This document shows, piece by piece, positions 1 to 1,822 of a stretch of DNA of 64,000 bases. Both the position numbers and the translations under genes were made by a program. Each line of letters starts with the position of its first letter. Position 1 is the first letter of the stretch. Origin of the DNA: Minisyncoccota bacterium (lineage in GTDB: Bacteria > Patescibacteriota > Minisyncoccia > Phycocordibacterales > Phycocordibacteraceae); assembly GCA_022842945.1 (NCBI GenBank), contig JALHOO010000001.1, positions 288,040 to 352,039 of the forward strand, given 5' to 3'. The notes under the pieces are model-generated. The model was not told the DNA's origin and searched no databases. It was given only the letters and a program-made list of their open reading frames with translations.

Positions 1-1822
1 GAAGGTGCTCCTGCGGCACGGGGTGCGCATTGCCTTCTGGGTCATAGACCATAGGGATAGGACATCCCCAGTATCGCTGCCTGCCCACAGACCAGTCGCG
101 CATGCGGTAGTTAGTAACGCGCTCGCCGCCCACGAAGTCGATAATCTCGTTCATCGCTTCTCGATTACTGCGTCCATCAAACTGACCAGAGTTTCGCAGC
201 AAGCCGTCGTCTCCATAGGCGCTCGGTGTAAGGAACCGTGCGAGTGCGTAGCTATGAAGTGGATCTTGTATCTCGCTCATGGCGCGCGCAACAGGAACCC
301 ACTCAACCTCAAACTTCCCTTTCTCGTCCTCTTCAAGAGCAGGCTCAATACGAGCATCACTGTTTAGACGGAAGTGCAGAAGGGTGGTGTGTGCTACAAA
401 CGCTTTGTTCTTAGAGTGTGCAAAATACTCGTGGTGTACCTGCTCCTCCGCTCTCTCAACGAGTTCAAGATCGGTATAGCCAGTTTCCTCTTTAATTTCA
501 CGCATAGCCGTGTCAGCGGCATCCTCATCTGGCTCCGCAGTCCCCCCAACAGACAAACGTCCTCCAAGCTCAGGTTTCCAGTTGATGGTGAGGACTTGTC
601 CTTCGTGTTCAACAACCGCAACAATCTTCGCTTTGTCTTCTGGATTCTCTTGAGGAGAGCCGGTAACAGGATCAATAACGCGCTTTAGAGGAAGGTTGTA
701 CGTCTTTGCAAACGCAAAGTCCCGCTCGTCATGTGCAGGAACTGCCATAACCGCTCCGGTCCCGTAGCTTGCGAGTACATAGTCTGCGATATAGACAGGA
801 ATTTCTTCCTTCGTAGCGGGATTAATTGCCATAACTCCCTCAAGACGAACTCCCGTCTTCTCCTTGTTCTCAAGGCGCTCGCGTTCAGACTTCTTTGCAG
901 TCTCCGCTACGTACGCAACAACCTCGCTCTTATTAGAAACAACATCGTCATCCTCCGTATCCCATACTGCACGCACCCACGGATGCTCGGGAGCCAAGAC
1001 TATGTAGGTAGCACCAAAGACCGTGTCAGGACGTGTAGTAAAGACTTCGATGCGTGCTGGGTTTCCATCTTCGTCCCTCCAGTCGTTGTGCTCTGGATGT
1101 GCTGAGAAGGAAAGTGTGAAGGAGAGTTTTGCGCCCTCTGACTTTCCTATCCATGCGCGCTGCGCTTCCTTAATCTCTTCGCGCCATGGAAGCGGTTCAA
1201 GGTCTGTTAGAAGACGCTCTGCATACATAGAGATAGCAAGAAACCACTGCGTAAGGTTACGCTCTTCAACTTCCGTGCCGCAGCGTTCACACTTCCCGTC
1301 ATTCACCTGCTCGTTTGCAAGTACGGTCTGATCCTTCGGGCACCACTTAACGGCCGCTTCTTTGCGGTATGCAAGATCGTGCTCGTAGAGCTTCGTAAAT
1401 AGCCACTGTGTCCACTTGTAGTAGGACGGATCTGATGTCATCACTTCCTTGGACCAATCAAGTGACGTACCCATGGAGCGCACCTGCGCGCGCATGGTCT
1501 CCATATTCTGAAGTGTCCACGCTTCCGGACTCTTTCCGTACTTAATAGCAGCGTTCTCAGCCGGAAGTCCGAACGAATCAAATCCCATAGGGAACAAGAC
1601 GTTCTTCCCCTGCATACGCTTGAAGCGTGCAAAGATGTCCGTTAGCGCAAAGGCATACCAATGCCCTATGTGCAGGTCTCCGGAGGGATACGGGAATTCA
1701 AAGAGAAGATAGTATGGCTCCTTCTCAGAGTCTGTAAGGTCTGTTTCGTACAGTTTGAGCGCCTCCCATTTCTCTTGGGCAGTCTGCTCTATGGCTGTGT
1801 GATCGAAACGCTCTTTTTTCAT
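1..1822 (-). CDS. leuS: Leucyl-tRNA synthetase, N-terminal ~607 aa (C-terminus beyond the window), carrying an inserted Nudix hydrolase domain
   Basis: My own minus-strand translation from the ATG at 1822..1820 reads [27 protein letters not shown], then a class-I HIGH region ([11 protein letters not shown]-like) and CP1. Further on come [36 protein letters not shown], a ~140-aa Nudix domain, and [26 protein letters not shown]. The ORF runs off the left edge, which is why the ORF track does not list it. Confidence 0.9.
   Translation of the reverse strand, partial: [607 protein letters not shown]

Follow-up and report, generated by a model that had tools for sequence, protein, structure and literature searches.

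Bacterial leucyl-tRNA synthetases (LeuRS), such as those of Thermus thermophilus (1H3N, 2BYT) and Escherichia coli (4AQ7, 4ARC), have a common order of domains, and it is rare for a bacterial aminoacyl-tRNA synthetase to contain an additional catalytic domain. The leuS gene located at one end of a 64,000-nucleotide stretch of DNA from a Minisyncoccota bacterium (GenBank assembly GCA_022842945.1, contig JALHOO010000001.1, positions 288,040 to 352,039), hereafter the window, encodes an enzyme with the same domain order, the same motifs, and the editing and synthetic signatures of the T. thermophilus and E. coli enzymes. In contrast to them, the LeuRS of the window includes a Nudix domain of ~140 residues within the CP1 editing domain, and it has no leucine-specific domain (residues ~580-636 in T. 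thermophilus).

Other described proteins resemble this LeuRS in part. An isoleucine--tRNA ligase that carries an N-acetyltransferase domain (NF040702) is another class Ia synthetase with an extra enzyme domain, but the synthetase and the added domain are different ones. In NadM-Nudix (NMN adenylyltransferase / ADP-ribose pyrophosphatase; 24-28 bits) a Nudix domain is likewise joined to an enzyme of ATP-adenylyl transfer; that fusion is terminal, specific for ADP-ribose and shows a proline marker, whereas the insert of LeuRS is internal and lacks this proline. The Nudix fold and the full Nudix box are shared with the Ap4A/Ap6A hydrolases (Aquifex 3I7U, T. thermophilus Ndx1), Rv2985, RppH, DIPP/DDP1 and AvrM14. 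This group, which acts on polyphosphate dinucleotides or caps, also has in common with the insert an aromatic residue at position +17 after the box; its members are 14-24% identical to the insert and free-standing, whereas the insert is embedded in an aminoacyl-tRNA synthetase. The MutT/Nudix protein 2AZW of Enterococcus faecalis, a stand-alone structural-genomics protein of unassigned function, is 15-16% identical to the insert.

We found no description of a LeuRS with a Nudix domain in the literature searched, whose coverage excludes most subscription journals, and the terms tRNA synthetase, tRNA ligase and leucyl do not occur in the full text of a 2017 review of the Nudix clan (PMC5389931). 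NCBIfam contains no model for a Nudix-containing LeuRS, and public annotation names these proteins only 'leucyl-tRNA synthetase' or 'class I tRNA ligase family protein'. An initial annotation of this DNA, made from the letters alone, had been aware of no described fusion of this kind; this holds in that no paper was found, but the architecture is not rare, given that it occurs in hundreds of public proteins from metagenome-assembled genomes (MAGs) that carry these names. Judged by family profiles, the insert belongs to the Nudix superfamily but to none of its curated subfamilies, and the LeuRS part is an ordinary bacterial LeuRS. The most novel element of LeuRS-Nudix is the apparent behavior of the module as a cassette that is exchanged between relatives.

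In this work we analyzed the reading frame, the insertion point, the distribution and the variation of this module. An ATG at 1820-1822 opens a minus-strand frame (window positions 2-1822) of 607 codons with zero stops and the N-terminus MKKERFDH; because this stop-free frame exits through the window start, leuS is incomplete owing to the window edge and not to a frameshift. A full-length homologue, P0001, has 960 aa and is 97% identical to the LeuRS of the window. Even with about one third of LeuRS lying beyond the window, the 607-aa fragment reached 564.4 bits against the NCBIfam model TIGR00396 leuS_bact (cutoff 548.4) in two matched stretches. The phmmer comparison with T. thermophilus LeuRS gave E = 1e-185. 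The features of the gene, all on the minus strand, are the following.

1..1822, minus strand: 5' part of leuS, codons 1-607; the open reading frame (ORF) runs past the window start
1163..1822, minus strand: class I catalytic (Rossmann) domain, N-terminal half, and Zn-binding module, aa 1-220
1661..1672, minus strand: HIGH signature H51-I-G-H54, with H51, G53 and H54 invariant in 115 homologues
674..1159, minus strand: CP1 editing domain before the insert, aa 222-383 (PF13603, 188 bits)
1022..1039, minus strand: threonine-rich editing motif TTRPDT, aa 262-267, aligned to TTRPDT of T. thermophilus
719..763, minus strand: editing-site motif with the conserved Asp, aa 354-368, aligned to T. thermophilus LeuRS
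221..673, minus strand: inserted module with its linkers, aa 384-534, between T. thermophilus LeuRS residues 375 and 376
257..622, minus strand: Nudix fold proper, aa 401-522 (Pfam NUDIX PF00293)
476..544, minus strand: Nudix box GX5EX7REUXEEXGU, G427-Y449, intact
425..427, minus strand: Y466, the aromatic residue 17 positions past the Nudix box (X-loop)
2..220, minus strand: remaining, C-terminal section of CP1 and re-entry into the catalytic core, aa 535-607 (T. thermophilus 376 onward)

The Pfam family tRNA-synt_1 matches aa 16-220, and the alignment to T. thermophilus LeuRS starts at residue 2 of the latter. PF13603 matches aa 222-393 with positions 1-150 of its 185-position profile. In the alignment of 115 homologues, T262, T263, R264 and T267 of TTRPDT are invariant, as are G354, G356, M359, P362, H364, D365, R367 and D368 of the editing-site motif; KMSKS lies beyond the window; it is found at aa 736-740 of P0001 and is likewise invariant in the 115 homologues. 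The leucine-specific domain is absent from this LeuRS clade, since aa 732-735 of P0001 align to residues 580-636 of T. thermophilus. From these data it is practically certain that the gene encodes a LeuRS with an embedded Nudix domain, arranged as listed. The gene is probably the working leucyl-tRNA synthetase of the organism, with ~140 residues of Nudix inserted in frame, and the conservation of its motifs suggests that the LeuRS part would aminoacylate and edit normally.

The insertion point was mapped on solved structures. In the phmmer alignment of P0001 to T. thermophilus LeuRS, residues 4-397 correspond to 2-375, and residues 535-732 to 376-580; therefore, the extra segment lies exactly between residues 375 and 376. 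This point follows the motif GTGA(V/I)MAVPAHD(E/Q)RD and its next strand, within CP1. A relative without insert, P0112, is a LeuRS of 810 aa that is 77% identical across the shared parts and likewise lacks the leucine-specific domain; at the junction it reads LPLRTVI, followed by the 9-residue linker EGEAPGADA and then by AYTGDGVLKNSG, and PF13603 runs unbroken through this junction over profile positions 1-182. Thus, the Nudix domain takes the place of a loop of ~10-19 residues, and it splits the CP1 proofreading domain at a surface loop. The junction residues of the family are VI-[DEA]-P ... [AP]-Y-[TG]-G-D-G, which in the LeuRS of the window appear as RVI-DPVTG ... TPSAY-GDDG.

The full-length AlphaFold (AF2) model has a mean predicted local distance difference test (pLDDT) of 89 and a predicted template modelling score (pTM) of 0.80, with values of 90-96 in the insert region. 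When it was compared by Foldseek with the LeuRS of E. coli (as complexes with tRNA) and T. thermophilus, the template modelling (TM) scores were 0.75-0.83, normalised to the target. In this model the insert is bracketed by one strand at aa 383-388 and another at aa 540-542, and these two strands would presumably pair with each other. Given that Foldseek with the whole model retrieved only LeuRS structures, the domain was modelled separately; alone, it gave a pLDDT of 93.8 and a pTM of 0.87.

PF00293 scores 47.3 bits in the LeuRS of the window, well over its gathering score of 21.1, and 52.3 bits in the excised insert. The Nudix box reads G427-x5-E433-x7-R441-E442-I443-x-E445-E446-x-G448-Y449, and its residues are strongly conserved in the 114 insert-bearing LeuRS that were aligned: G427, E442, E445 and E446 are present in all 114, G448 in 111, R441 in 108, and E433 in 104. 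Outside the box, W415, K471 and W508 are invariant and E500 is found in 113. Across insert types that share only 18-35% overall identity, the residues G, E, EE, G, K88 and W125 remain unchanged. At the level of sequence, such a pattern of conservation marks an enzyme domain under catalytic constraint, and we consider it likely that the Nudix is catalytically active, presumably as a Mg2+-dependent pyrophosphohydrolase.

These results bear on most of what had been proposed for this gene. A complete Nudix domain had been placed in frame inside LeuRS, and the scores of TIGR00396 and PF00293, both above their cutoffs in a frame with no stop or frameshift, agree with it; the segment does score as a NUDIX domain, and the catalytic residues of the box, said to be retained, are conserved in 104 to 114 of the 114 sequences. 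The positions given by the initial annotation were right within a few bases (box at ~478-553, computed 476-544; insert at ~215-660, computed 221-673). That the segment might be the ordinary leucyl-specific domain had been named as a possible refutation; the latter maps to T. thermophilus 580-636, ahead of KMSKS, and is absent here, so that this identity of the insert was ruled out. Two details have to be corrected: the motif that starts at window position 766, which had been labelled 'post-CP1', is the conserved editing-site motif inside CP1 (PF13603 covers profile positions 1-150 before the insert, and 1-182 in P0112), and the linker of ~30 residues attributed to the junction is, by comparison with T. 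thermophilus and P0112, a loop of ~10-19 residues.

The distribution of this architecture was studied at several levels. A protein search covered 5.8 billion proteins and the best 120 matches were assessed; PF00293 lies inside LeuRS in 119 of these homologues, whose lengths are 935-973 aa, and the sources that are named are MAGs of Paceibacterota, Parcubacteria, Kaiserbacteria or Patescibacteria. In a genome scan with the insert profile as query and one genome per GTDB species, at least 463 relatives were detected, and all of the best 80 loci are flanked on both sides by LeuRS and have the same junction (P0112 positions ~382 and 390). These 80 loci include Parcubacteria, Paceibacteria, Saccharibacteria/Saccharimonadia, Giovannonibacteria and Taylorbacteria, together with ~35 MAGs from the gut to which the depositors gave the labels Bacilli, Tenericutes, Mycoplasmatota or Erysipelotrichaceae. 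The latter may represent a real second lineage or horizontal transfer (the ~35 MAGs with Bacilli or Tenericutes labels). Other depositor labels on MAGs with LeuRS-Nudix are Gammaproteobacteria, Muribaculaceae, Roseburia and Lachnospiraceae; loci with labels of these kinds, including Bacilli and Tenericutes, are L012-L014, L016, L024, L029, L031, L033, L039, L053, L059 and others. The contigs labelled Gammaproteobacteria, Muribaculaceae and Roseburia look like mis-binned or mislabelled Patescibacteria-like contigs. Hundreds of species of ultra-small, uncultured bacteria from the Candidate Phyla Radiation, and some gut lineages, carry LeuRS-Nudix.

An exhaustive HMMER search was carried out with the 150-aa insert alone against 1.84 billion cluster representatives (E<=1e-3). 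It returned 126 representatives; the majority of those long enough to be judged are LeuRS, and no other synthetase or housekeeping protein was present among the 126. When these representatives were compared with the insert-less P0112, the insertions mapped to four sites of LeuRS.

Site A: within CP1, the same as in the LeuRS of the window
Site B: in the hinge directly before CP1, between YAERLL.DLD and WPE.IK..QRNWIG, sometimes as two tandem copies
Site C: in the variable loop that precedes TTRPDT
Site D: near P0112 positions 486-513

The same Nudix subfamily is thus found at four sites, with one to three copies per enzyme (three in P0126 and P0127). Stand-alone members of the subfamily also exist, i.e. 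P0125 (154 aa, 45% identity), P0161, P0169, P0177, P0193 and P0233. The Nudix and LeuRS show a tight and repeated evolutionary association.

In the LeuRS of the window, site C coincides with a second hypervariable CP1 loop, aa 236-258 (about 1049-1117, minus strand), directly before TTRPDT; between the loci L081 and L082 this loop has 37% nucleotide identity. Other in-frame modules were also observed in the same regions of LeuRS from candidate phyla. Judged by eye from sequence motifs, they resemble alpha/beta serine hydrolases, HAD-like phosphatases and ASCH/PUA-like domains, as well as an endonuclease fold similar to DUF559 and a segment that may be Maf/HAM1-like; they are carried by P0121, P0124, P0138, P0171, P0173, P0185, P0192, P0207, P0211, P0212, P0243 and P0245. 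Judging from these modules, domain insertion seems to have general hotspots in LeuRS, namely the loops around CP1 and another loop further on.

The identity of the LeuRS body and that of the insert show hardly any correlation. In pairwise comparison the Spearman coefficient between both identities was 0.11-0.12, with means of 69% for the body and 47% for the insert. Among the 49 pairs whose bodies are at least 85% identical, 20 have inserts less than 40% identical, and bodies 88-99% identical are paired with inserts of 18-33% identity, as in the following examples, for which body identity was measured outside CP1.

P0017 and P0072: body 99%, insert 30%
P0008 and P0078: body 96%, insert 29%
P0020 and P0081: body 92%, insert 21%

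The converse was also found, i.e. inserts 82-84% identical within bodies that are 63-67% identical. Single-linkage clustering at 45% separates at least 8 insert types among the 114 sequences, which were chosen by similarity to the query and are not a population sample.

The limits of the divergent tracts were examined at the nucleotide level. The loci of P0017 and P0072 are syntenic over 18 kb with about 97% nucleotide identity, and within leuS, nucleotides 1-660 and 1700-2868 are 95-100% identical; between nucleotides 660 and 1700, which comprise the whole CP1, identity is 85-93% in CP1 proper and ~45-50% in the Nudix, which is unalignable. In the pair P0008/P0078, divergence is essentially limited to the Nudix and its linkers. 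From these tracts it follows that homologous recombination anchored in the conserved LeuRS flanks has repeatedly replaced the module, either by itself or together with the remainder of CP1; by these alignments the module behaves as a recombining, exchangeable cassette. The third-position GC content is 0.46 in the insert (221-673) and 0.56 in the rest of the leuS fragment (2-1822), a difference of about two standard errors that is weakly compatible with a foreign origin of the cassette; overall GC values are 0.51 for the insert, 0.52 for the rest of the fragment and 0.52 for the whole window. For an essential housekeeping enzyme it is unusual that a cassette is swapped between genes that are nearly identical, and this hints at selection unconnected with plain house-cleaning.

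With regard to function, the explanation that we prefer, although tentatively and at somewhat less than an even chance, is that of a working LeuRS with a Nudix that acts on adenylate side-products. The substrates would be Ap4A, Ap3A, ApnN and related adenylylated polyphosphates, and possibly Np4-capped RNA ends. Such products arise when the enzyme-bound aminoacyl-adenylate reacts with ATP or other NTPs instead of tRNA, and a hydrolase tethered to CP1 would be placed at the source of the dinucleoside polyphosphates (ApnA). Aminoacyl-tRNA synthetases are the main cellular makers of ApnA, and Nudix enzymes are their main degraders (PMC4734340). In Nudix proteins a Tyr in the X-loop ~17 residues past the box is a marker of ApnA hydrolases (Dunn et al. 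1999, summarised in PMC5389931). This marker is a weak one; in the 114 insert-bearing LeuRS position +17 is always aromatic (Tyr in 84, Phe in 27, Trp in 3). The proline of ADP-ribose pyrophosphatases is absent from the insert, where positions +15 to +17 are H-E-Y, and +16 is E, S or G across the family; the SQPWPFPxS motif of NADH pyrophosphatase (NudC) is absent as well.

A search of the PDB with the single sequence of the insert yielded only a 27-residue match to the Nudix box, and a profile search was required. The best full-length match in the latter was the rust Nudix effector AvrM14 (E = 1e-8), which we take to be an mRNA-decapping Nudix enzyme. By structure, the top 15 neighbours include AvrM14, DDP1, Ndx1, Rv2985, DIPP1 and the lupin Ap4Aase; characterised neighbours include T. 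thermophilus Ndx1 (an Ap6A hydrolase), Mycobacterium tuberculosis Rv2985 (an ApnA-ase), the Aquifex Ap4A hydrolase and RppH. The assignment of the substrate to the ApnA or cap class is nevertheless doubtful, with clearly lower chances than that of activity itself. As for the two ideas advanced in the initial annotation, Ap4A hydrolysis is plausible, with weak evidence in its favor, and hydrolysis of mis-activated adenylates finds no support. If the Nudix degrades ApnA or cap-like products, this would be the first aminoacyl-tRNA synthetase that carries its own clean-up enzyme for adenylate side-products, and it would offer a handle on alarmone metabolism in unculturable organisms.

Several observations weigh against a role in the removal of adenylate side-products. 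LeuRS is not known as a strong producer of Ap4A. No member of the subfamily has been characterised; 2azw, which ranks first among the structural neighbours, is an uncharacterised protein, and those ranked second and third, Ndx2 and NudF, are hydrolases of NDP-sugars or ADP-sugars. In NCBIfam, the equivalog models of NudB, NadM-Nudix, RppH, NudE and MutT1 all score far below their cutoffs: the top Nudix match, the NudB model NF006961 (dihydroneopterin-triphosphate diphosphatase), gives 38-42 bits with a cutoff of 103, the RppH model NF001938 gives 17.8-20.5 bits with a cutoff of 116, and the NadM-Nudix and NudE models give 16-28 bits with cutoffs of 169-449. In some insert types the box has other residues in place of its first Glu and its Arg (GQT...A/M-E-I-x-E-E), so the copies need not be equally active. 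Finally, simple house-cleaning leaves unexplained the four sites, the presence of up to three copies, and the exchange of cassettes that are 20-30% identical between LeuRS bodies with 90-99% identity.

Four other explanations were weighed along with this one. That a separate Nudix gene had been fused to leuS by an error of sequencing or assembly or by a frameshift, or that the insert is an intein-like element, has a negligible probability and no observation in its favor: the frame is continuous over 607 codons, identical junctions recur in hundreds of independent assemblies from different projects, and two strands that probably pair lie on either side of the Nudix in the AF2 model of the full-length protein. 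A separate gene or frameshift was therefore ruled out by the continuous frame and the conserved junctions, and an intein by the lack of splice motifs at the junctions of the family alignment, which show no Cys/Ser/Thr nucleophile with a His-Asn pair. The Nudix fold could instead be a non-catalytic appendage of CP1 with a structural, tRNA-binding or ligand-sensing role, which might substitute for the missing leucine-specific domain or act as a gate on the movement of CP1 between aminoacylation and editing. The absence of that domain from the LeuRS of the window fits this idea, as does the loss of the first Glu and the Arg of the box in some insert types, but P0112 also lacks the domain and has no insert, so the Nudix is not a required substitute; moreover, the metal-binding glutamates of REUXEE are conserved in 114 of 114 sequences and invariant across types less than 30% identical, which is unexpected for a purely structural role. 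We regard this alternative as improbable. Another view would make the insert a generic house-cleaning Nudix, mechanistically unlinked to leucylation, that hydrolyzes ADP-ribose, NDP-sugars, oxidised or non-canonical (d)NTPs or dihydroneopterin triphosphate, and that gains co-expression or stability from an essential and constitutively expressed host protein in reduced genomes. The top NCBIfam matches, below cutoff, are indeed NudB and the NadM-type ADP-ribose pyrophosphatase, stand-alone members of the subfamily exist, and the unrelated HAD, alpha/beta hydrolase and ASCH-like modules of these LeuRS suggest permissive loops. Against it, the subfamily resides overwhelmingly in LeuRS and in no other aminoacyl-tRNA synthetase or housekeeping protein among the 126 representatives, its repeated insertion at four sites, three of them in CP1 or at its hinge, indicates a link with LeuRS, the proline marker of ADP-ribose pyrophosphatases is absent, and the genome already has separate generic Nudix genes; we consider this explanation unlikely.

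An explanation of comparable, low probability, yet one to be taken seriously, is that the insert belongs to a conflict or immunity module, i.e. a recombining polymorphic Nudix cassette under frequency-dependent or diversifying selection, that would destroy or sense a nucleotide-based toxin, inhibitor or modification of LeuRS, its editing site or tRNA-Leu. Candidates would be an adenylate-mimic antibiotic carrier, an ADP-ribosyl or nucleotidyl modification, or an effector of a phage or host, and the cassette types would differ in specificity. Divergent inserts in near-identical bodies (20 of 49 pairs), inserts of 82-84% identity in bodies of 63-67% identity, and the syntenic genomes that are ~97% identical over 18 kb with a divergent CP1 and an unalignable Nudix all speak in favor of it. 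So do the number of insert types, the one to three copies at four sites together with other enzyme modules in the same LeuRS loops, the lower third-position GC of the insert, and the fact that Nudix domains recur in conflict systems linked to NAD and ADP-ribose (PMC7159879). However, no toxin, partner gene or defence island was seen around leuS, whose neighbours are housekeeping genes (ychF, mgtC, DUF5671, a sigma factor and a tRNA-modification gene), mosaic alleles can form neutrally where conserved flanks permit homologous recombination, and the 114 sequences were picked by similarity to the query rather than from a population. No close relatives of the insert were found in viral contigs, which gave only generic matches to the Nudix box with 30-56% identity over 25-70 residues, so a phage origin was rejected; a known anti-phage system was also rejected, given that the best PADLOC-DB match, PDC-S07 (18.6 bits, E = 3e-4), reflects a generic Nudix resemblance. 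More doubtful still is the broader proposal that the LeuRS Nudix modules of Patescibacteria and related reduced-genome bacteria constitute a previously unrecognised polymorphic immunity or sensing system. According to it, at least 8 interchangeable cassette types, at four sites and in one to three copies, would be shuffled between strains by recombination, and their diversity would be selected since it guards the LeuRS editing site or tRNA-Leu from nucleotide-based attack by phages, hosts or competitors, or senses such an attack. If this were true, an immunity function would be built into an essential translation enzyme, which would be new.

The rest of the window includes two stand-alone Nudix genes, as had been noted from the start, both on the minus strand (3339-3764; 42681-43103 or 43154, depending on the start codon), and the gene upstream of leuS encodes a membrane protein.

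3339-3764, minus strand: stand-alone Nudix gene, 141 aa (Pfam NUDIX, 66 bits)
42681-43154, minus strand: the other stand-alone Nudix gene, 157 aa if a TTG is the start codon and 140 aa if it is the ATG at 43103
1827-2855, minus strand: membrane protein gene, 342 aa; its syntenic counterpart in L081 and L082 is DUF5671

The first Nudix gene has weak NCBIfam matches below cutoff to a Nudix-family model, MutT and others, and it sits between ychF (3778-4872) and an mgtC-like gene (2870-3328), three genes upstream of leuS. The second shows weak MutT-like matches in NCBIfam (43-50 bits, the best 49.8 with a cutoff of 245). The insert was rejected as a recent duplicate of either gene, given that the similarity is confined to the Nudix box, and the window contains no other copy of the insert subfamily. 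The stop codon of the membrane protein gene lies 4 nt ahead of the ATG of leuS, which suggests that both genes are co-transcribed. L081 and L082 keep the order ychF - mgtC - (DUF378) - DUF5671 - leuS - sigma factor, and at the syntenic position of the first Nudix gene they lack a Nudix gene and have just an ORF of 46 aa on the opposite strand. Outside the leuS tract, only two short segments fail to align between these two loci, which are ~97% identical: one comprises L081 17834-18385 and L082 12926-13425, with a minus-strand hypothetical gene of 151 aa in the former and 145 aa in the latter, and the other is L081 19192-19381, directly before the UDG gene. Four tRNA genes are also present in the window.

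62875-62957, plus strand: tRNA-Leu(CAA)
13613-13686, minus strand: tRNA-Ala(GGC)
19459-19533, minus strand: tRNA-Ala(UGC)
50366-50437, minus strand: tRNA-Gln(UUG)

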